Below, in pieces: positions 3,086 to 56,719 of a stretch of 64,000 nucleotides of DNA. The number at the start of each line of letters is the position of its first letter. Within the stretch, counting starts at the first letter, position 1. The translations under genes and the position numbers were made by a program. The DNA comes from Syntrophothermus sp. DTU052 (GTDB lineage Bacteria; Bacillota; Syntrophomonadia; Syntrophomonadales; DTU052): the NCBI GenBank assembly GCA_001512495.1, contig LFRU01000032.1:45765-109764 (forward strand), read 5' to 3'. A model generated the notes under the pieces. That model was not told the origin of the DNA. It ran no database searches and was given only the letters and a program-made list of their open reading frames with translations.

Positions 3086-4885
3086 GTGGATAATATTCGG
3101 AACTTCTGTATCATCGCCCATATCGATCACGGCAAATCGACCCTGGCCGACCGCCTGATGGAGTATACCGGAACCCTCTCCCAGCGTGAGATGCGGGAGC
3201 AGTTCCTGGATACCCTGGATCTGGAACGGGAACGGGGCATCACCATCAAGCTGACCCCGGTTCGACTGGAGTACAAGGCCCGGGACGGACAGACGTATAT
3301 ACTGAACCTGATCGATACTCCCGGGCATGTTGATTTTACTTATGAGGTATCGCGCAGTCTGGCGGCCTGTGAGGGGGCCCTGCTGGTAGTTGATGCCTCT
3401 CAGGGGATTGAAGCCCAGACGCTGGCCAATGTGTACCAGGCGATGGAGCAGGACTTGGAAATTATCGGGGTGTTGAACAAGATAGACCTGCCCAATGCCG
3501 AACCGGAACGTGTTATTGACGAGATGGGTGATGTCTTGGGAATTGTCCCCTCGGACATTATTCGGGTGTCGGCCAAGCTGGGCCAGGGGGTTGAGGAGGT
3601 CCTGGAAGCGTTGGTTGCCAGGGTGCCGCCTCCCCGGGGAGATGCCGGCCGGCCCCTGCAGGCACTGATTTTTGATTCCTACTTCGACTCCTACCGCGGA
3701 GCTATCAGCTACATAAGGGTTTTCCAGGGGCAGATCAAAAAAGGGGATCTGATCCGCATGATGGCAACCGGCAAGGAGTATGAGGTCTCCGAGATCGGGA
3801 TCTTCACTCCCCGCATGAAACCGGTGGAGGTTTTGAAGGCCGGAGAGGTAGGTTATCTGGCGGCCGGAATAAAGAACGTTCTTGACACCCGGGTCGGAGA
3901 TACCATAACCTCTGCCAAAACGCCGGCGCCGGCCCCTCTGCCGGGCTACCGCCGGATTAAGCCGGTGGTGTTCTGTGGTTTATACCCGGTGGAAAACAGT
4001 GAGTTTGAAAGGCTGCGTGATGCTCTGGAGAAGCTGAGGCTGAATGATGCTTCCCTGCAGTTTGAACCGGAGACCTCGGAGGCCCTGGGGTTTGGCTTCC
4101 GCTGTGGCTTCCTGGGACTGCTGCATATGGAGATAATCACCGAAAGGCTGGAGCGTGAATACAACCTGGAATTGATCATCACCGCCCCCAGCGTTGTCTA
4201 CCAGGTGCTGCTGGAGAACGAAGAAGTAATCGAGGTTGACAATCCTGCTCAGTGGCCGCCAATCGGTCAGATCCGCCAGGTCAAGGAACCATATGTGCAG
4301 TCCACCATAATGGTTCCCGACGATTTTATCGGGAGCATCATGGAACTGTGCCAGGAGAAACGCGGCACCTTCAAGAACATGGAATACCTCTCACCTCACC
4401 GGGTGATGCTGGTCTATGATATGCCTCTTTCCGAGATCATCTATGATTTTTTTGATGCTTTGAAGTCGAGAACGAAGGGCTATGCCTCTTTCGATTATGA
4501 GATAATCGGCTATGTAGAATCTGAGTTGGTTAAGCTGGATATCATGTTGAACGGGGAAATAGTGGACGCTCTGTCGTTTATCGTGCACAAGGACAAGGCC
4601 TATCCCCGGGCCCGGACCATTGTGGAAAAGCTGCGCCGGATCATCCCCCGGCAGCTATATGAAGTCGCCATTCAGGCGTCCATCGGCAGCCGGATCATTG
4701 CTCGGGAAAATGTCAAAGCCAGGCGCAAAGATGTGCTCGCAAAATGCTACGGTGGTGACATAACCCGCAAGAAAAAACTGCTGGAGAAACAGAAAGAAGG
4801 TAAGAAACGCATGAAACAGATTGGTAGGGTTGAAGTCCCTAAAGAGACCTTTATTTCTGTTTTGGACATGGATGATGACCGATGA
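3086..4885 (+). CDS. lepA: Elongation factor 4 (LepA)
   Basis: 599 aa. GTPase motifs [14 protein letters not shown] and NKID are present, with a LepA-specific C-terminal domain. An RBS GGAGGG precedes the GTG start. Confidence 0.97.
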
Positions 4886-6144
4886 TGGATGGAGAGAATA
4901 CCAAAGGGGGCAGAGAACGGGAATATAATCCTTCAGATGCGGCCAGGGGCCTGACAAACACTGTCCTGCCGGACGCGGCTGACTCTGGGTCAAGACCGAT
5001 GGGCATTTATATACATTTTCCATTCTGTTTACGCAAGTGCTCCTATTGCGATTTCTATTCCATCCCCTACCAGGCAGATTTGGCAGAAGAATACTGCAGC
5101 GCTCTTTGTTGTGAGATTGAGAGGGTCGCCGACCGACAGGAATGGGGAACGGCTATATCCGTTTACCTGGGCGGCGGCACCCCGAGCTTGATGTCGCCGG
5201 CCCAGATCCAAAGGCTGTTTGCTCATATCCATAGATTCTTCACCGTAGCTGCCGACTGCGAAATAACCATGGAAGCCAATCCGGACACCGTCAGCCTTGA
5301 TCGACTGAAAGCCGGCTGTGAGGCAGGGATCAACCGGATCAGCCTGGGGGTGCAGTCCTTTAACGAATCCGAACTTGAGCTCCTGGGCCGGATTCATTCC
5401 CGGGATGCGGTTTGTCGAAGTGTTGAGAATGTGGTGAAAGCAGGAATAACCAATTACGGGCTTGATCTTATTTACGGCATTCCGGGACAGGGTCTGCCGG
5501 AATGGCTGCACAATCTGGAGGAGGCCATTAAACTGGTCCCTGCTCACCTTTCCTGTTATCTTTTACAGATGGAGGAGATGGTTCCGCTGGCGCTCCGCCT
5601 GCAGAAAGGGGAGGTGGCAGCTCTGCCGGAGGAGGAGGAGTCCGACATGTACTACGCCGCTGTGAACCGCCTTAAGCATGCAGGTTATCAACACTACGAG
5701 ATCTCTAATTTCTGCCGACCCGGGGCAGCCTGTCGTCACAATCTGAACTACTGGGAGGCCGGTGATTATCTGGGAATCGGTGCTGGAGCAGTATCTTTTA
5801 AGGGCGGCGTGAGATACTGGAATCTACCTCAAATCCGGCAGTACACCCGGAACCTTCTATCCAAGGGCTCGGAACCGCCCCGGGAGGTTCTGGAATCCCT
5901 AATATCAAGGGAACAGTTGGGGTGTGATGCCATGATCATGGGGCTCAGGATGATCCGGGGGATTAATGTAGATGAGTTTGAAAAGCGATTTGGATTGCAG
6001 CCTCAAACGGCGTTTGCAGATGCTTTGCAGAAAAGCAGGGAAGAGAGGTTGCTGGAGTATCATCATCCCTGGCTGCGCTTGACCCCGCAGGGGTATTTTC
6101 TATCCAACCGTGTGTTTGTGAGGATACTGGAAGCAATTCTGTAG
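4882..6144 (+). CDS. hemW: Radical SAM heme chaperone HemW (HemN-like, oxygen-independent coproporphyrinogen oxidase family)
   Basis: Radical SAM motif [11 protein letters not shown] follows [10 protein letters not shown], and a HemN_C-like C-terminus is present. ATGA overlap with the lepA stop. An alternative start is the ATG at 4999. Confidence 0.85.
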
Positions 6145-6223: not shown

Positions 6224-6252
6224 TTGACAAAGGAAATGACTGGTGTTATTTT
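6224..6252 (+). promoter_or_regulatory. Putative sigma-A promoter of the hrcA operon
   Basis: TTGACA at 6224-6229, a 17-nt spacer, then TGtTATTTT (an extended -10-like element) ending at 6252, immediately upstream of CIRCE. Confidence 0.35.
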
Positions 6253-6264
6253 CTTAGTAAGATA

Positions 6265-6291
6265 TTAGCACTCAACTCCCGAGAGTGCTAA
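6265..6291 (+). promoter_or_regulatory. CIRCE operator (HrcA binding site)
   Basis: Perfect match to the consensus TTAGCACTC-N9-GAGTGCTAA: ttagcactc aactcccga gagtgctaa. It ends 4 nt before the hrcA start. Confidence 0.92.
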
Positions 6292-6295
6292 CAGG

Positions 6296-7336
6296 GTGAT
6301 TGCTATGAAGCTGGATGAACGTAAAAAGGCGATTCTCGAAGCGGTCGTAAAGGAGTATGTTCGAACCGCGGAGCCCATAGGATCGCGAGCTATTGTCAAA
6401 AAACGCAATTTGGGGGTCAGCCCGGCAACGGTGCGCAACGAGATGGCTGATCTTGAAGAGATGGGCTTTCTGGAACAACCTCATACCTCATCAGGACGCA
6501 TTCCCTCGGAAAACGGCTTCCGGTATTTTGTTGATTACATGATGGTGAAAGAACAGTTTACTCCTGAAGAGGAGGAATACCTGAGAAATATGCTTTCTCA
6601 GAAGATTGAGGACATCTCCACCGTCATCCGGCGGACTGGGAATGTCCTGGCTCAATTCACCAATTATGCCTCGGTGGTCATCACCCCTCCGATGTCGGCC
6701 GGCAAACTGCTGCATCTGCAACTGGTGCCGGTAGGGCACAGGCAGGCTCTGGTGGTCATGGTAACCGATCTGGGCAATGTAATTCACAGGCGGATAGAAG
6801 TGCCGGAATCCATCGAGGCTCAAGACTTGGAGGACCTGTCCCGGCTGTTTACCAAAAATCTCCAGGGAGCTCATTTTGACAGCATTGGCCGTACCGTGCT
6901 GAACAGTCTGCGTCGCGAACTGCTGCATCGACGCCAGTTTATTGAGAAGGTTTTAGAAGCCATTGAGATGACCATGGGTAATGATGAGAATGAAAGGGTA
7001 TTCATTAATGGAGCCTTGAATATCGTCAATCAGCCTGAATTCAAGGATTTTGAGAAGCTCCGCAGGCTGCTGCTGGCTCTGGAAGAACATGAACTCATTA
7101 AGAGTCTGGTAAGTGAAACCGGACTGCGAGAGGTAAAAATAAAAATAGGAACCGAGAATGAGGCCGAGGAGATTAAAGAACTCAGCGTGGTTTTCACCAC
7201 TTATGTGGTTGATGGCAACGAAAAGGGCAGAATAGGATTGATCGGTCCGGTAAGAATGGAGTACTGGAAGGCATCAGCCTCGGTGGAAAAAGTCCGCGAT
7301 ATTGTACAGGAAATAATCCATGATATGTCGAGATAG
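6296..7336 (+). CDS. hrcA: Heat-inducible transcription repressor HrcA
   Basis: 346 aa. N-terminal winged helix (RKKAILEAVVKEYVRTAEPIGSRAIV...SPATVRNEMADLEEMGFLEQPHTSSGRIPS) and position before grpE-dnaK-dnaJ. The start may be the ATG at 6305. Confidence 0.95.
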   Translation: MIAMKLDERKKAILEAVVKEYVRTAEPIGSRAIVKKRNLGVSPATVRNEMADLEEMGFLEQPHTSSGRIPSENGFRYFVDYMMVKEQFTPEEEEYLRNMLSQKIEDISTVIRRTGNVLAQFTNYASVVITPPMSAGKLLHLQLVPVGHRQALVVMVTDLGNVIHRRIEVPESIEAQDLEDLSRLFTKNLQGAHFDSIGRTVLNSLRRELLHRRQFIEKVLEAIEMTMGNDENERVFINGALNIVNQPEFKDFEKLRRLLLALEEHELIKSLVSETGLREVKIKIGTENEAEEIKELSVVFTTYVVDGNEKGRIGLIGPVRMEYWKASASVEKVRDIVQEIIHDMSR

Positions 7337-7416
7337 GAGACATTAACGGGAAACCAGGTCCATGCAGGACAGGAAACTGACAACCGTTTCGAGACTCTGG
7401 TTAACACACCACCGCG

Positions 7417-8087
7417 GTGCGGGTGATTTCTCAGGCCGTGGAAGGCACCATCGGGCCGAAAGGCCTGGACATCATGATGGTCGATAGCTATGGCAATGTG
7501 GTCATCACCAATGATGGGGTTACTATCCTCAGCCTTATGGAGGTTAACCACCCGGCGACCAGGATGATAATTGACGCAGCCAAGGTTCAGCATGAGGAGG
7601 TGGGGGATGGCACTACAACGGCCACCATTATGGCATCAGCCATCATTGCAGAAGGTCTGAACCAAGTCCTTAAGGGAGTGCGGTTACCAAGGTTCTGGAA
7701 GGGATCCGCCTGGTCATATCTTATGGACTGGAAGAGATTAAGAGGTGCTTGCGCCAGGTTTCAGGATGGAAGGATCCGCTGCTTTATGCAGCCGCGGTAG
7801 CCGGATGTGGAGATGAGGAAATTGCCCGGCTCGTCATCGAAGTCGGCTCAATTATTGGTCAACAACAGCTCCAGGAAGCTGGATTCAAGTTTGAGGATGC
7901 GGTCATGGCTCGTTGATTGCGATACCGGGCATTTGATAACGGCCGGGGAGGCCGGGATCTGGATCCGACATTGGTCAAGGTCAAGGCTCTGCCCACCGGT
8001 GAGGTGGCAACAGCTATCCTACGGATAGACACGATGATTAAGAAAAAGGAATTGCCAGAACCAAAGAGTGCAGGGATCAGGTTATAA
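7417..8087 (+). pseudogene. Decayed thermosome-type (group II/III, Cpn60/TCP-1 family) chaperonin gene
   Basis: Frame 1 from 7417 encodes the equatorial-domain block ...GPKGLDIMMVDSYGNVVITNDGVTILSLMEVNHPATRMI...EVGDGTTTATIMASAII. A 1-nt frameshift occurs near 7681 and an in-frame TGA at 7914-7916. The C-terminal piece DPTLVKVKALPTGEVATAILRIDTMIKKK ends at 8085-8087. Only about 220 codons remain and the apical domain is absent. Confidence 0.75.
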
Positions 8088-8099
8088 TGAGGTGACGGA

Positions 8100-8693
8100 A
8101 TGAATAACGAAAGAACCCGTGAAATGGATCTGGAAAAGGAGAACGCACCTGAGCATTTATCCGAAGGTGATAACCAGCCAGAAAAGGAAACTGAAGAGAC
8201 GAGTGACGAAGCCGGCCTACTGCGAGAACAGCTGGAGGCGGAGAGGACCAAAGCCCATGAATACTATAACAAATACATGAGGGCCTTGGCGGATTCTGAA
8301 AACCAACGCAAGCGGTGGCAGAAGGATAAAGAAGAGCTGCTTCGTTATGGAAATATGCCTTTACTGCAGAAGCTGTTACCGGTGGTGGATGACTTCAAGA
8401 GGGCCAAGGCGGCCATAGAACAGGGAGGAGACATATCCTCGCTCCTCAAAGGGGTTGAATTGATAGAAAAAAGACTCCTGGACCTGCTTGAACAGGAAGG
8501 GGTTGCAGCTATTCCCGCCGAGGGCGAGATGTTTGATCCCCGGGTTCACGAAGCATTCAGCATAGATGAAAGCGGACAATACCCTGACGGTACCATAGTC
8601 CAGGAATTTCAGACCGGATACACCTATCTGGAACGGGTGCTGCGTCCCAGTATGGTGGTGGTGGCTCAAACCAGGTCAGCGGAAGAGGAATAA
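8100..8693 (+). CDS. grpE: Nucleotide exchange factor GrpE
   Basis: 197 aa. Acidic N-terminus, a coiled coil (RALADSENQRKRWQKDKEE) and a GrpE C-terminal beta domain, located between hrcA and dnaK. Confidence 0.95.
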   Translation: MNNERTREMDLEKENAPEHLSEGDNQPEKETEETSDEAGLLREQLEAERTKAHEYYNKYMRALADSENQRKRWQKDKEELLRYGNMPLLQKLLPVVDDFKRAKAAIEQGGDISSLLKGVELIEKRLLDLLEQEGVAAIPAEGEMFDPRVHEAFSIDESGQYPDGTIVQEFQTGYTYLERVLRPSMVVVAQTRSAEEE

Positions 8694-8823: not shown

Positions 8824-10629
8824 ATGGGCAAAGTGGTAGGTATTGATTTGGGGACTACGAACTCCTGTATTGCATTTATGGACGGCAACGATGCTACGGT
8901 GATAACCAACAGCGAAGGAGAAAGGATTACTCCCTCAGTAGTAGGGTTTTCCAAAACCGGTGAGAGGTTGGTCGGCCGTGTAGCCAAAAGACAGGCGGTT
9001 ACCAACCCTGATAGAACGATCCTTTCTATCAAACGGCATATGGGTACCAAATACCGGGTAAAGATAGATGATAAAGAATATTCTCCACCCGAGATTTCGG
9101 CCATGATCCTGCAGAAGATGAAAGCTGATGCGGAGGCCTATCTGGGGGAACCTGTTACTCAGGCAGTAATCACAGTCCCGGCATACTTTACCGATGCCCA
9201 GAGGCAGGCGACGAAAGACGCAGGCAAGATTGCGGGTCTTGAGGTATTGCGTATTATCAATGAACCTACGGCCGCCAGCCTGGCCTACGGGCTGGATAAA
9301 GAGGGGAGCCAGATCATCCTGGTTTTTGACCTGGGAGGAGGAACCTTTGACGTTTCTATCCTGGAGATTGGGGAAGGGGTTTTTGAAGTCAAGGCTACCA
9401 GCGGTAACAACCGTCTGGGCGGTGACGATTTTGATGACCGTATCATAGAATACCTGGTTAATGAGTTTAAGAAATCTACCGGGGTTGATCTCAAAGCTGA
9501 CAAGATGTCCAAGCAGCGCCTGAAAGAAGCTGCTGAGAAGGCCAAACATGAGCTTTCCACCTTAACCAGTACCGATATAAACATTCCCTTTATAACGGCC
9601 ACATCCGAGGGTCCTCTACACCTGGATCAGACGCTGACCCGGGCCAAATTTGACGAACTCACAGCCGATTTGGTGGAGAAAACCATGGGACCTACCCGCC
9701 AGGCTTTGAAGGATGCAGGACTGAAACCGGAGCAGATCGACCGGGTCATCCTGGTAGGTGGTTCAACCAGGATGCCGTCCGTACAAAGGGCAATCAAGAA
9801 TTACCTGGGCAAAGAACCGTATAAGGGGATCAATCCGGACGAAGTGGTGGCCATCGGGGCGGCCATTCAGGGGGCGATCCTGGCCGGTGACGTCAAGGAC
9901 GTGGTGCTCCTGGATGTTACCCCGCTCAGTTTGGGGATTGAGACCCTCGGCGGTGTGTTCACCAAAATGATAGAACGCAACACCACTATACCAACCTCCA
10001 AGAGCCAGATATTTTCTACTGCGGCGGACAACCAGACCTCGGTGGAAATCCATGTCCTCCAGGGGGAGCGTTCTATGGCCAAGCACAATGTTACCCTGGG
10101 ACGTTTTCATTTGGAGGGGATTCCCCCGGCACCGCGGGGCGTACCTCAGATTGAGGTCAACTTTGATATTGATGTCAACGGGATTGTAAATGTCAGCGCC
10201 AAAGACCTGGCGACGAACAAAGAGCAGAAGATCACCATTACTTCTTCCTCAGGCCTTACCAGCGAGGAGATTGAAAAAATGGTCAAAGAAGCTGAGAAGT
10301 ACGCCGAAGAGGACCGTAAAGCCCGGGAAGCGGCAGAAGCACGTAACCAGGGAGACAGTATGGTCTACCAGGCGGAAAAGGCCATTAAAGATTTCGGAGA
10401 AAAGGTAGACGCGGCTTTGATAGATAAGCTCAAGGCCGGCAAAGAAGAATTATCGCAAGCCCTGGCCGGCGATGATATAGATTTAATCAAGAAGAAAACG
10501 GAGGAGCTCACCACTGCCATATATGAGGTTACTGCCAAAGCATATGAGCAGGCGGCTCCTGAAAGCAGTGAACAACCTGACGACGGGGTTTATGATGCTG
10601 ATTACGATATAGCGGATGACAACAAGTAA
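8824..10629 (+). CDS. dnaK: Molecular chaperone DnaK (Hsp70)
   Basis: 601 aa with the Hsp70 signatures [19 protein letters not shown] and [11 protein letters not shown]. Confidence 0.99.
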
Positions 10630-10827: not shown

Positions 10828-11940
10828 GTGGCAAAGCGGGATTACTATGAGATCTTGGGTGTTTCCCGTAATGCTTCTCCAGAGGAAATAAAAAAGGCCT
10901 ATCGTAATGCGGCCTTAAAATACCATCCCGATGTGGCAAAAGACAAGGAAGAGGCTGCGGTCAAAATGAAGGAACTGAACGAGGCCTACGCTGTGCTCAG
11001 TGATGAGCAGAAGCGCAGACAGTACGACCAGTTTGGCCATGCAGCCTTCGATCCCAATCAGGGGTTTGGCGGTGGTTTTGATTTCGACCTTGGTGGCATG
11101 GGCGATATCTTTGATATCTTTTTCGGCGGCGGCGGTCGGCGCCGCCGTACGGGTCCCCAACGGGGTGCAGACCGCGAAATGCAGGTGGTTATTGATTTTG
11201 AGGATGCCGCTTTTGGCGTGGAAAAGGAGATCCAGTTCCCCCGCCTGGAAGATTGCGATGTCTGCGAAGGCAGCGGTGCAGAACCGGGTACTTCGCCGAA
11301 AACATGTCCCACGTGCAATGGCAGGGGTCAGGTGCGTAATGTACAGAGTACACCCCTGGGGAGATTTGAAACGCTCAGAACCTGCAACCGCTGCGGGGGC
11401 AGCGGCAGGATAATTGAAAAGCCGTGCAGAACCTGCCACGGTCAGGGAAAAGTCAGGCGTAACCGGCGTGTTACCCTGCGGGTCCCCGCCGGGGTAGATA
11501 CCGGATCCAAGCTCCGTATGCCGGGGGAAGGAGAACCGGGTATAAATGGAGGTCCTCCCGGGGATCTTTACGTTTACGTCCAGGTTAAGCCCCACAAGGT
11601 ATTTCAACGTCGCGGGTTTGATATATACTGTGAGATCCCGATAACCTTTATCCAGGCGGCTCTGGGCGATGAGGTGGAGGTGCCGGTCCTGGACGGCAGT
11701 GGAAGCATAAAGGTCCCGGAGGGAACCCAGACCGGAGCCAGTTTTACTTTGAAGGGCAAGGGGATCCCGCACATCAGGGGGAACCGGCGTGGTGACCAGA
11801 TTGTGTTTGTTAAGGTGGTTACTCCTACCCGACTGACGGAAAAGCAGAAGGAATTACTCAGGAAGTTTGAACAGGAAGAGGAGAAAAAACATGAACGTAA
11901 AGGTATTTTCAATAAAGTAAAGGATGCCTTCACCGGATAA
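10828..11940 (+). CDS. dnaJ: Co-chaperone DnaJ (Hsp40)
   Basis: 370 aa. J domain with HPD (YHPDV), a G/F-rich linker and four CxxCxGxG zinc-finger repeats. Confidence 0.97.
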
Positions 11941-27284: not shown

Positions 27285-27503
27285 ATACCTGCGATGAAAG
27301 AGCAAGTAGGCCTGGAATACCTTCTTGCAGAGAGCCGGGAGGGGTGGGAACCTGGTAGAAGGAACGGGTTGAAAGGCACTCTGGAGCAGCGGGAGGAAAG
27401 CCGGAAAAGGTTAGTAAAACCCGATTTATGAGAGGGCGTTACGCCAATCAGGGTGGAACCGCGGGCCAAGCTCGTCCCTGCTATGGGAACGAGCTTATTT
27501 CTT
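27285..27503 (+). promoter_or_regulatory. T-box riboswitch leader, glycine specifier (GGC)
   Basis: Stem I start tgcgatgaaagagcaagtag. Specifier-loop context gaaaGGCa (GGC at 27375-27377). T-box motif AATCAGGGTGGAACCGCG (27446-27463). Terminator aagctcgtccc...gggaacgagctt followed by atttctt, ending at 27503. It lies directly before glyQ. Confidence 0.9.
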
Positions 27504-27519: not shown

Positions 27520-28446
27520 TTGGCGTTAACATTTCAAGGAGTAATCTTAACCCTGGAAAAATTCTGGGGAGATAAGGGGTGTATTATTCAGCAGCCCTAT
27601 GATGTGGAAAAAGGTGCGGGAACTATGAATCCGGCGACCTTTCTGCGCGCTTTGGGTCCCGAACCCTGGAACGTAGCTTATGTCGAGCCGTCACGACGGC
27701 CGACCGACGGTCGTTACGGGGAGAACCCCAATCGCCTGCAGCACTACTACCAGTACCAGGTGATCCTGAAACCATCACCGGATGATGTACTGGAGCAGTA
27801 CCTGGACAGCCTCCGCCAATTAGGAATTGAACCGGAAAAGCACGATATAAGGTTGGTGGAGGACAACTGGGAGTCACCTACCCTTGGCGCCTGGGGCTTA
27901 GGCTGGGAGGTATGGCTGGACGGGATGGAGGTAACCCAGTTTACCTACTTCCAGCAATGCGGAGGGTTTGATTGTTATCCCGTATGTGCGGAAATAACAT
28001 ATGGTATTGAAAGACTGGCCATGTATATACAAAACAAGGAGAGCGTTTACGACATCGAGTGGATTGAAGGAATAACCTACGGTGATATTCACCACCAGGG
28101 GGAGATTGACTACTCACACTACAACTTCAATGTGGCTGATGTTGAGACCCTCTTGACCATGTTCCAACTTAGTGAACAGGAGGCCCTGCGGGTATTGGAA
28201 AAGCGATTGGTTCAACCGGCCTATGACTATGTATTGAAGTGTTCCCACCTGTTTAATCTCCTGGATGCACGGGGAGCCATCAGCGTTACCGAGAGAACCG
28301 CCTATATCGGCAGGATTCGCAACCTGGCCCGCTCCGTTGCCAGGGAATATCTGGCACAGCGTGAGAGGTTGGGCTACCCCCTGCTAAAGGATGCGGCCCG
28401 CCGGGAACTTCTGGGATTGGATAAAGGGGGGAAAGTCAGTGAATAA
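27520..28446 (+). CDS. glyQ: Glycine--tRNA ligase alpha subunit
   Basis: 308 aa. [48 protein letters not shown] is highly characteristic of GlyQ. TTG start after GGGAGG. Confidence 0.97.
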
Positions 28447-30505
28447 GGAACTGCTGCTGGAGATCGGAACCGAGGAAATGCCGGCGTTACTGTTGCCGGC
28501 AGCAATTGATGATTTAAGGAAGCTGGCGGAATCGGAGCTCAGTGCGGCCCGATTATCATATAGTAACCTGCGCATCGGGAGTACGCCCCGGCGTCTGACC
28601 CTTATGGTAGAGGGACTTGCAGACAAGCAGGCAGAATATGTGCGCGAGGTAAGAGGCCCCAGGGCTGACAAGGCCTTTGACGCTGAGGGCCGACCGACCA
28701 AAGCAGTTCAGGGCTTTGTCCGGAGCCAGGGGGTCTCCCTGGACGACCTGATCACCCGGGAAGCAGGGGGACACACCTACATCTTTGCTTCCATAAGAGA
28801 ACAGGGGCAACCGACAGTTCAGGTCCTACCTGAGGTGCTGCGCCGGATAATAACCGGGATGTCATTTCCCCGGTCTATGCGTTGGGGGTATTCCGAGGTC
28901 CGGTTTATACGGCCCATACGCTGGATAGTGGCCCTTTTCGACGGTGAGGTGATACCGTTGGAAATTGAGAATGTTACATCTGGAGACTTAACTTACGGAC
29001 ACCGCTTTCTTCATCCTCAAGCCATCAAGGTTAAGGGGATTGATGAGTATATCGAAAAACTGCGCCAGGCTTACGTTATAGTTGATGTTCAGGAACGCCG
29101 GGAGTGGATCTGGGAACAGGTCACAAGGGAAGCCGAGAACCAGGGGGGAATGGTGTTGAAGGATGAAAAGCTCCTGGAAGAGGTAACCTTCCTGGTGGAA
29201 TACCCCACTGCTTTTGCCGGGACTTTTTCCTCCGACTATTTAAGCATACCCCCGGAGGTCCTGGTTACCAGCATGAAGGAGCACCAGCGGTATTTTCCGG
29301 TTGTTGATAATCAGGGCAACCTGATGCCGGTGTTCATCGGGGTGCGAAACGGAACCAATGATAATATTCAGGTGGTGGCCGAGGGGAACCAGCGGGTGCT
29401 GAAAGCCCGCCTGGATGATGCCTATTTCTTTTATCGGGAGGATACCAAAGAACCTCTGGAGAGCAAAGTCAAGCTGCTGGACAGAGTGATTTACCAGGCC
29501 CGGCTGGGGACTATCGGAGAGAAGGCCAGGCGGCTGCAGAACCTCTCCGCATTTATAGCTCGGGAGCTCGGGTTTGAGCAGATAGAACAGACGAAACGGG
29601 CGGCTCTGTTGTGCAAGGCTGATCTGGAGACCAACATGGTTTATGAATTCCCTGAACTGCAAGGGATCATGGGGCGCAACTATGCCCTCCGGGATGGTGA
29701 GGATCCGGTGGTAGCCCAAGCAATCTTTGAACACTACCTCCCGCGCTTTGCCGGGGACGAACTGCCGGTTACCGCTCCGGGGATCGCACTTTCCCTGGCT
29801 GAGAAGTTCGACAACCTGGTGGGGAACTTTGCCATCGGAGTGCGACCAACCGGATCCCAGGATCCCTATGCCCTGCGGCGGCAGGCCTTGGGGATCGTGG
29901 CTATGGTTCTGAACTCCAGGCTGGAACTGGATCTGGACAAGGTTATTCGCAGGTCTTACCGTGAATTTAAAGCCCGTCTTGACCTTAACGAGGAAGAGAC
30001 TGTAAGTTCGGTTATGGATTTTATTCGGCTCCGACTGCGGGGTGTACTGCAGGATGAGGGAATACCATATGATATCCTAGATGCGGTTATTAATCTGGAT
30101 GTTTCCCAACTGCTGCTGATGAGTGAGAGGGCCAAAGCTTTGATAGCAATTAAAGAACAGCCCTATTTTGAGGACTTGATGGTAGCCTTCAACCGTCCTT
30201 TCAACCTTTCCCGGAAGGAGAGGAGCCAACTTGTTCGACCGGAGTTGTTTGAGGACCCGGCCGAACAGGAGCTGTATCAAGTAACCCTGAAGTTGAATCA
30301 GGAATTACCAGGTTATCTAAATCGGCGAAGGTACTCCGCTTATTGCGAAAAGCTGGCTGCTACGAGGCCTTACCTGGATACCTTCTTTGAGCGCGTAATG
30401 GTCATGGTTGAAGACGATCAGATTCGGGAAAACCGCTTGGCGCTCTTAAAGCAGGTGGTTCAAATGTTCCTCAATTTTGCCGACTTCTCCAAACTGGTGG
30501 TTTGA
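28439..30505 (+). CDS. glyS: Glycine--tRNA ligase beta subunit
   Basis: The GTG at 28439 overlaps the glyQ end. The product starts [15 protein letters not shown] and carries a GlyS body and an anticodon-binding C-terminus. The ORF track opens at 28391. Confidence 0.95.
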
Positions 30506-45138: not shown

Positions 45139-45213
45139 TCCTCGATAGCTCAACGGTAGAGCAACCGGCTGTTAACCGGTAGGTTGTAGGTTCGAATCCT
45201 ACTCGGGGAGCCA
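45139..45213 (+). tRNA. tRNA-Asn (GTT)
   Basis: 75 nt. Acceptor stem tcctcga/tcgggga, then G and encoded CCA. Anticodon loop ctGTTaa. T-loop ggttcgaatcc. Confidence 0.93.
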
Positions 45214-45220
45214 TTAATTT

Positions 45221-45296
45221 GGGCCTATAGCTCAGTTGGTAGAGCTACCGGCTCATAACCGGTTGGTCCCAGGTTCGAGTCCTGGTAGGCCCACCA
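45221..45296 (+). tRNA. tRNA with CAT anticodon (probably tRNA-Ile2/lysidine type; elongator Met not excluded)
   Basis: 76 nt. GGGCCTATAGCTCAG..., anticodon loop ctCATaa, encoded CCA. It lacks the initiator features. The GGnCC acceptor and CUCAUAA loop resemble Bacillus tRNA-Ile2. Confidence 0.85.
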
Positions 45297-45367
45297 AACG
45301 GGAAGTCGGAGACCGGAAGTTGGATGCCGAGGTTTTCAATCCGGTCCTCGGATAGCAATAAAATCAT

Positions 45368-45442
45368 GGCCCCATGGTCAAGTGGTTAAGACACCGCCCT
45401 TTCACGGCGGTAACTGGGGTTCGAATCCCCATGGGGTCACCA
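45368..45442 (+). tRNA. tRNA-Glu (TTC)
   Basis: 75 nt. GGCCCCATGGTCAAGTGGTTAAGACACCGCCCTTTCACGGCGG... is nearly identical in pattern to Bacillus tRNA-Glu. Encoded CCA. Confidence 0.95.
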
Positions 45443-45447
45443 TAATT

Positions 45448-45523
45448 GGGCGATTAGCTCAGCTGGGAGAGCACCTGCCTTACAAGCAGGGGGTCGGCAG
45501 TTCAAGCCTGTCATCGCCCACCA
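45448..45523 (+). tRNA. tRNA-Val (TAC)
   Basis: 76 nt. GGGCGATTAGCTCAGCTGGGAGAGC, anticodon loop ctTACaa, encoded CCA. Confidence 0.94.
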
Positions 45524-56313: not shown

Positions 56314-56322
56314 ATTAATGGA

Positions 56323-56719
56323 CGCGAGCAAATCTGTAAGCGGAGTTCTGTTAAAGATAGTCATCTATCTGGGATGGCAGTTGCCTGCCACCTCTAGCGA
56401 CCCAACCCGGGAGCGGAGTGGGCAACTCCAATGCTCCCCTATTTGGTCTTGCTCCGGGTGGGGTTTACCTAGCCGACCAGTCGCCTGACCGCTGGTGAGC
56501 TCTTACCTCACCGTTCCACCCTTACCGAAAGTGGGAAACTGTATTTAGAAATCGCCATGATTAAACTAACTTCATAATGCAGGTTCCCACTTTCGGCGGT
56601 TTGTTTCTGTGGCACTATCCTTGAGGTTGCCCTCACTGGGTGTTACCCAGCACCCTGCCCTGTGGAGCTCCGACTTTCCTCAGGTCAATTTTGACCCGCG
56701 ACTATCCGATTTACTCGCG
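56323..56719 (-). ncRNA. rnpB: RNase P RNA, bacterial class A
   Basis: The minus strand reads CGCGAGTAAATC...GAGGAAAGTCGGAGCTCCACAGGGCAGGGTGCTGGGTAACACCCAGTGAGGGCAACC...ACAGAAA...GGTAAGGGTGGAACGGTGAGGTAAGAGCTCACC...AAACCCCACCCGGAGCAAGACCAAATAGGGG...ACAGAACTCCGCTTACAGATTTGCTCGCG. All universal RNase P blocks and the P1 pairing are present. Confidence 0.95.

Follow-up and report, generated by a model that had tools for sequence, protein, structure and literature searches.

Group III chaperonins and the hrcA-grpE slot

Group III chaperonins, the bacterial 'archaeal-like' branch of the Cpn60/TCP-1 family, are a minor, much-discussed group that matters for the question of how groups I and II originated and for a possible functional link with DnaK. 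They were first described by Techtmann and Robb in 2010, as cited in PMC5635000, and the branch was also described in PMC12696368, where horizontal transfer was proposed for the family; transfer and loss are the usual explanation for its patchy distribution. The prototype is Ch-CPN from Carboxydothermus hydrogenoformans (PDB 5X9U/5X9V; An et al. 2017, PMC5635000), whose subunit is divided into an equatorial domain (residues 1-136 and 385-502), an intermediate domain (137-198 and 350-384) and an apical domain (199-349). The nucleotide-sensing loop of groups I and II is absent or shortened in group III, and the genes are located in the DnaK operon 'with one exception' (PMC5635000).

The stretch of DNA analysed here (64 kb; hereafter the window) belongs to an uncultured Syntrophomonadaceae, and its positions 7346-8087 are very probably a non-functional pseudogene, left by a group III chaperonin gene formerly resident between hrcA and grpE. 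Both the family and the place are known and the decay is of the ordinary kind, with no new system or mechanism involved. The remnant occupies the canonical hrcA-X-grpE slot of the family, with CIRCE upstream and dnaK and dnaJ following. A hemW-like radical-SAM gene (4882-6144) is listed within this Firmicute heat-shock unit, and a candidate sigma-70-like promoter (TTGACA-17-TATTTT with TG, 6224-6252, + strand, 10/12 matches in a consensus scan) sits just upstream of a perfectly matching CIRCE operator, the binding site of HrcA (TTAGCACTC-N9-GAGTGCTAA, 6265-6291, + strand). CIRCE at the operon promoter is unique in the 64-kb window, with an expectation of 0 from shuffled sequences. The following genes, all on the + strand, are hrcA, encoding the heat-shock repressor (6296-7336, stop TAG at 7334-7336), grpE (8100-8693), dnaK (8824-10629; Pfam HSP70) and dnaJ (10828-11940), the last recognized by the J domain, G/F region and CxxCxGxG repeats in its sequence. 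Pfam HrcA and GrpE are recorded on identical JGI contigs, and the DnaJ Pfam families on the homologous dnaJ of a related locus (L009). The earlier placement of the remnant inside a CIRCE-controlled hrcA-grpE-dnaK unit was thus borne out by the perfect CIRCE and the gene order. The hrcA-grpE spacer covers 7337-8099 (763 bp, or 767 bp by tblastn in contigs with both flanking genes intact), and a second chaperonin or groEL was not found within the 64-kb window.

The slot was surveyed in 75 related loci with both hrcA and grpE, which were fetched via an HrcA search of GTDB species representatives, so that chaperonin presence was not a selection criterion. A full-length, single-frame group III chaperonin lay between the two genes in 37 of the 75, and a chaperonin with a frameshift in one. 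Short spacers of 71-380 nt without a detectable remnant accounted for 34, and a relaxed tblastn with the 37 intact chaperonins as queries found no remnant in such spacers outside the window's own clade. The statement in the sequence-only reading that intact versions exist in exactly this slot agrees with these 37 loci and with the DnaK-operon statement of PMC5635000.

The intact orthologues from Syntrophomonadaceae that were compared most closely are L090 (159-kb JGI contig Ga0208297_1000192; 519 codons in one frame, HrcA 83% identical in amino acids to that of the window), L013 (JAAYDA010000021) and L009 (an ENA contig with the whole gene and one probable error frameshift). The best intact reference, L090, came from a metagenome scan with the N-terminal block of the remnant, which did not return the window's own population. 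The three share slot, orientation and RBS context (…TAGGGAGACCTTAATG…) with the window and are 78-84% identical in amino acids over the N-terminal block; they contain 510-519 codons in one frame, in contrast to about 247 codon-equivalents in five frame segments in the window. At 5x coverage, the chaperonin gene (1139-2697) and dnaK (3436-5239) of L009 are each split by a single frameshift, probably through errors of assembly and not because they are pseudogenes.

Several observations were made alongside the survey. Four MAGs from PRJNA951521 (L014-L017) are labelled Acidobacteriota, Chitinophagales, Solirubrobacterales and Deltaproteobacteria, but their heat-shock loci resemble those of Syntrophomonadaceae, their HrcA proteins being 52-65% identical to that of the window, and the taxonomic labels look doubtful; L014-L016 show the hrcA-cpn-(grpE) arrangement, and the hrcA-grpE spacer of L017 is empty. 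Short 'TCP-1/cpn60' proteins with out-of-frame-looking tails (P0099, P0065, P0089, P0092 and P0088) are encoded on long contigs, examples being one of 177 aa on a 5.95-Mb contig, one of 99 aa from Desulforamulus aquiferis and one of 109 aa from Syntrophomonas palmitatica. Among the matches below 300 aa, to which this comparison was restricted, such cases raise the possibility that frameshifted or truncated group III chaperonin genes may be common in Firmicutes.

Family identity and anatomy of the remnant

The spacer had been read from its letters alone as a decayed thermosome-like chaperonin gene and not as groEL, and the profile and structure searches, together with the NCBIfam ranking, confirmed this. 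The repaired translation reached 147 bits against Pfam PF00118 (Cpn60_TCP1; cut-off 34.3, E=9.8e-43), and the raw 127-aa ORF within it 103.9 bits (1e-29), so that similarity to chaperonins is far beyond chance. A first stitched translation matched PDB 9rwq at 9.6e-54 and 5x9u (Ch-CPN) at 2e-47 in two blocks (chain residues 25-193 and 477-509). Stitching in the frames of the sequence-only reading, which gave the C-terminal domain an E of 0.086, was dropped, and frame 1 followed by frame 0 was chosen after comparison with L009. Inclusion of the additional segment (D, below) brought the C-terminal PDB domain from 0.086 to 4e-8, aligned over 460-509, and the corrected stitching reached 5e-60 to 9rwq and 1.6e-51 to 5x9u by phmmer against PDB. 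In the same search the best clear group II match was 3.9e-31 (9rwp, about 4e-31), and CCT and thermosome chains followed at about 1e-26. The entries 9rwq (518 aa) and 9rwp (530 aa) are both titled 'Ancestral Group II Chaperonin (ACII)'; 9rwq may be the group III ancestor (ACIII) of PMC12696368, given its 5e-60 match to the remnant versus 4e-31 for 9rwp.

Ch-CPN is the closest solved structure with a natural sequence, and its alignment to the remnant is essentially ungapped over residues 23-189 and 458-507, with a single 1-residue gap in 23-189. Both appear to be short where group II carries the nucleotide-sensing loop, and alignment to group II proteins (9rwp and Mm-cpn 3kfb) requires 7 extra residues in the 130-145 region of the query. 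The remnant shares the signature motifs GPKG-D, ITNDG-TIL and GDGTTT with thermosome and CCT, and the thermosome-type NCBIfam models were its top matches (135 bits, versus at most 90 bits for GroEL models), yet even the intact L090 protein scores only 308 bits against curated cut-offs of 400-671. Unlike archaeal and eukaryotic group II chaperonins, the remnant has a bacterial host and lies in a dnaK operon, inside the same hrcA-grpE-dnaK order as the Ch-CPN gene. GroEL belongs to the same superfamily and, in Firmicutes, follows the same HrcA/CIRCE regulon logic, but the match is much weaker (roughly 34% amino acid identity to E. coli GroEL over 120 residues), and a groES partner is absent beside the remnant. 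Because of the near-ungapped Ch-CPN alignment, the gap to group II, the sub-cut-off thermosome scores and the operon position, the remnant is assigned, by its sequence, to the bacterial group III branch of Cpn60/TCP-1.

The lesions were mapped base by base through DNA alignment to the intact-slot relatives L009 and L090. Chaperonin homology spans 7346-8087; the RBS AGGAG (7335-7339) is kept upstream of it, and the start codon is lost, with ACG at 7346-7348 where the intact references L009, L090 and L013 have ATG. Five segments, all on the + strand, follow one another in different frames. Segment A (7346-7404, frame 2, codons 1-20), placed by the alignment to L009 and L090, ends at a -1 frameshift at 7404/7405 (codon 21), through which segment B (7405-7680, frame 1, codons 21-112) is entered. 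Segment B holds the three ATP-site motifs and is 84% identical in amino acids to the L090 chaperonin. The earlier reading had let the homology begin at 7417; the frame it gave is present there, but the homology starts at 7346, and the lost ATG and the frameshift at 7404/7405, both upstream of 7417, had been passed over. A second -1 frameshift at 7681 turns CCG into CG in the Pro codon of LKGVPV (codon 113), exactly the kind of single-base loss that had been suspected near this position, and leads into segment C (7681-7909, frame 0, codons 113 to about 190), which comprises the end of the N-terminal equatorial segment and the first intermediate-domain segment by the domain limits of PMC5635000.

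Segment C ends in an internal-deletion junction (7905-7911, + strand) with TGGC microhomology, at which the counterpart of L090 nt 565-1373 is absent. The deletion of about 809 nt is out of frame (2 mod 3) and removed codons ~190-457. Since the junction is out of frame, the TGA at 7914-7916, which lies just past it and is read in the old frame, is a by-product and not a nonsense mutation; the in-frame TGA reported earlier does exist, but it does not interrupt the true frame. Segment D (7906-7962, frame 1, codons 458-476) reads WLVDCDTGHLITAGEAGIW and matches WAVDCDTGQVVETRQTGIW in L009 and WVVDCDTGQVVETGKTGIW in L090. A third -1 frameshift at 7962/7963 (TGGGAT to TGGAT, codon 477) leads to segment E (7963-8087, frame 0), with codons 477-519 and the native stop TAA at 8085-8087. 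The peptides quoted in the sequence-only reading are all present at the positions and in the frames given for them; its C-terminal frame (DPTLVKVKAL...) holds after 7962/7963, but 'LRYRAFDNGRGGRDL' is out-of-frame text, as 7906-7962 truly belongs to frame 1. Its lesion list was right on 7681 and incomplete otherwise, missing the lost ATG, the frameshifts at 7404/7405 and 7962/7963 and the ~809-nt deletion. Two further gaps of 3 nt in the remnant are both in-frame.

Altogether about 247 codon-equivalents of 519 are left; a major loss had been recognized correctly, with an estimate of about 220 of 520-540 codons. The N-terminal equatorial segment with its ATP-site motifs, most of the first intermediate segment and the last ~50-60 residues are kept, and the deletion took the entire apical/lid domain along with the second intermediate segment and, from the C-terminal equatorial segment, ~70 residues, the earlier claim about the apical domain being upheld by the corrected alignment and the domain limits of PMC5635000. 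Neither the complete ORF nor the full three-domain subunit of a group III chaperonin is found in the remnant, and it is predicted to be incapable of giving rise to a chaperonin subunit. Unlike Ch-CPN, it has no start codon, carries three frameshifts and lacks residues ~190-457, the apical domain and built-in lid among them, and it is unable to form a ring or fold clients.

A 127-aa ORF survives from GTG 7417 to 7800, consisting of 88 residues of the N-terminal equatorial ATP-site block and 39 out-of-frame residues. It corresponds to protein P0021, recorded on 19 JGI contigs. In JGI/IMG the ORF is called a gene, 'chaperonin GroEL (HSP60 family)', with the pseudogene unflagged, and owing to this label presence surveys would miscount the organism as group III-bearing.

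Sister species and the course of decay

The window forms a tight trio with MAG loci of the two closest GTDB species, L010 (JAKOVY010000066) and L011 (JAAYEQ010000025), at 88-92% nucleotide identity in hrcA, grpE and dnaK, and all three carry chaperonin remnants in the same slot. In the nearest outgroups the 519-codon gene is intact. The spacer remnant of L010 is 298 nt long (L010:5039-5335) and keeps codons 1 to ~31 and ~455-519, and that of L011, of 358 nt (L011:5039-5395), keeps codons about 1-12, ~112-194 and the last ~10. With different parts deleted in each, the three together constitute a natural decay series. Another locus, L012 (Syntrophothermus sp. UBA1445, L012:4990-5140), shows only the last ~40 chaperonin codons; it was considered unreliable because of an 'NN' gap at its hrcA end and because its sister L009 has the whole gene, and the apparent loss may be a scaffold gap. 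The last ~50 nt of the spacer and the grpE RBS (GAGGTGA, 8088-8094, + strand, invariant alignment columns) are conserved in all four species of the clade.

The position of the start codon is destroyed in all three members of the trio (ACG in the window, AAC and AAG in the sisters), which suggests that inactivation probably preceded the split of these species. The frameshifts at 7404/7405 and 7962/7963 are absent from L010 and thus arose after the split, as expected in an already-dead gene. The edges of the large deletions were compared as well. L010 perhaps keeps ~10-15 nt upstream of codon 458 that are missing in the window (37 of 500 shuffles reach the score), and L011 perhaps keeps ~20-40 nt past codon 190 (15 of 500 shuffles when only the expected continuation was searched); an unrestricted search was not significant (204 of 500). 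If anything, these weak signals point to independent, lineage-specific large deletions that ended close to one another. L011 also matches the LKGVPV site of L013 over 17 nt, which was judged spurious, and a four-way MAFFT alignment of the spacers, which misplaced the N-terminal piece of L010, was set aside in favour of pairwise and spliced alignments.

Compared with its sisters, the remnant in the window has changed at 21-22% of aligned sites and shows 4-5 indels per ~200 nt, most of which break the frame. For the neighbouring genes hrcA, grpE and dnaK, pN is 2.4-7.2%, pS 27-33% and dN/dS 0.06-0.20. At ~200 nt per comparison, the remnant appears to be drifting near-neutrally, its divergence being approximately the synonymous rate; its JC distance of 0.25 is somewhat below the flanking dS of 0.34-0.43, which, at the same small length, may reflect weak constraint or later inactivation.

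The course of events could accordingly be pictured as follows. The promoter under CIRCE/HrcA control at about 6224-6291 would have driven the ancestral chaperonin gene together with hrcA and grpE. The remnant presumably remains in this transcript as a long spacer that is for the most part untranslated, since the consensus scan showed no terminator-like site on the + strand between hrcA and grpE (7337-8099). grpE would be translated from its own conserved RBS. Useful translation of the remnant is unlikely because a Shine-Dalgarno sequence is absent before GTG 7417 and the sisters deleted that block, and neutral mutation with a deletion bias would be erasing what is left, with the sisters already down to 298 and 358 nt. 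The loss itself would reflect the dispensability of an accessory chaperonin in this lineage. Together with its two sisters, the window thus offers a dated, base-resolved view of a loss in progress in a free-living anaerobe, in which inactivation probably came first and a different part was then deleted in each lineage, with hrcA, grpE and dnaK strongly constrained throughout and the accessory chaperonin apparently dispensable in the clade.

Competing explanations and neighbouring features

Two of the alternatives concern the origin of the remnant, and both were found to be next to impossible. If the lesions were assembly or consensus errors, the organism would have an intact chaperonin gene of ~1.6 kb at this place; frameshifts in short homopolymers (CC to C at 7681, GGG to GG at 7962) do belong to a typical error class, and in the related 5x contig L009 both the chaperonin gene and dnaK contain frameshifts that are probably errors. 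However, eight contigs from eight separate JGI metagenome samples are base-for-base identical across 7337-8099, their few SNPs and indels being confined to the flanks, and the identity of the remnant in eight independent assemblies excludes an assembly error. The samples are 3300049647, 3300027510, 3300053716, 3300038956, 3300010340, 3300002392, 3300002378 and 3300006840. Nor can a consensus error account for an 809-nt deletion. The tblastn spacer is 767 bp in all seven contigs with both flanking genes intact, the flanking genes of the eight are intact except for a grpE indel in L005 and an N-run in dnaK of L004, and the remnants of the two sister species are even shorter. The assembly-error explanation is effectively refuted, and the remnant is fixed in its population; the intact gene that the sequence-only reading had named as evidence against itself is not there, the eight assemblies all carrying the same remnant. 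The other proposal, that a piece of foreign chaperonin DNA entered an hrcA-grpE spacer which was empty before, could draw on the patchy distribution of group III and the horizontal transfer proposed in PMC12696368. It is almost certainly wrong: between the hrcA stop and the grpE RBS the remnant runs colinear with the intact orthologue, its degree of identity with the closest intact counterpart (84% of amino acids in the best block, ~74-83% of nucleotides) tracks that of the flanks (HrcA 83% of amino acids), and homologous remnants lie at the same place in the sister species.

The remaining alternatives accept the decay and ask whether the product still does something. It is very unlikely that the 127-aa ORF is translated with a residual or new role, such as that of a mini-chaperone or of a factor modulating DnaK or HrcA, although the ORF exists, would lie inside the heat-shock transcript, matches PF00118 at 1e-29 and is invariant in eight samples. 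The stretch before its GTG (7397-7416, ctggttaacacaccaccgcg) contains no Shine-Dalgarno sequence, the native start and first 20 codons are severed from it by the frameshift, and the fragment is an isolated equatorial piece without the C-terminal half that completes that domain (PMC5635000). It is just this block that both sisters have lost (codons ~32-454 are missing in L010 and ~13-111 in L011), and the invariance says no more than that the samples share one clonal population, whose flanks hardly differ either. Retention of the remnant for a cis-regulatory role on grpE-dnaK-dnaJ, through an internal promoter, an RNA structure or polarity-tuning spacing, is similarly improbable. A promoter-like site at 7544-7571 is weak (9/12 in the consensus scan), and the number of such sites, 3 versus 2.5 expected in shuffles, is at chance level; no second CIRCE was found within the hrcA-grpE spacer, the sisters lack most of the region including 7544-7571, and 34 related genomes manage with spacers of only 71-380 nt. 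The conserved 3' end with the grpE RBS, which might be cited for such a role, is explained by the RBS alone. Put more generally, there is little chance that the ORF 7417-7800 fragment or the ~760-nt untranslated RNA still influences the heat-shock operon, be it as an ATP-site fragment acting on DnaK or HrcA or as a polarity/Rho-termination buffer that would set the ratio of hrcA to grpE-dnaK. Were this true, the trimming in the sisters would represent selection on the hrcA:grpE-dnaK expression ratio and not pure drift. A non-functional pseudogene of the resident group III gene is therefore the explanation retained here.

Other features of the window lie well downstream of the heat-shock unit. 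A T-box leader (Rfam RF00230, 94.8 bits; 27285-27482, + strand) stands directly upstream of glyQ and glyS (27520-30505, + strand), which encode the glycyl-tRNA synthetase alpha and beta subunits (Pfam). A cluster of four tRNA genes, Asn(GTT), Met(CAT), Glu(TTC) and Val(TAC), occupies 45139-45523 (+ strand), and a class A bacterial RNase P RNA (320 bits) is encoded at 56321-56717 on the - strand.
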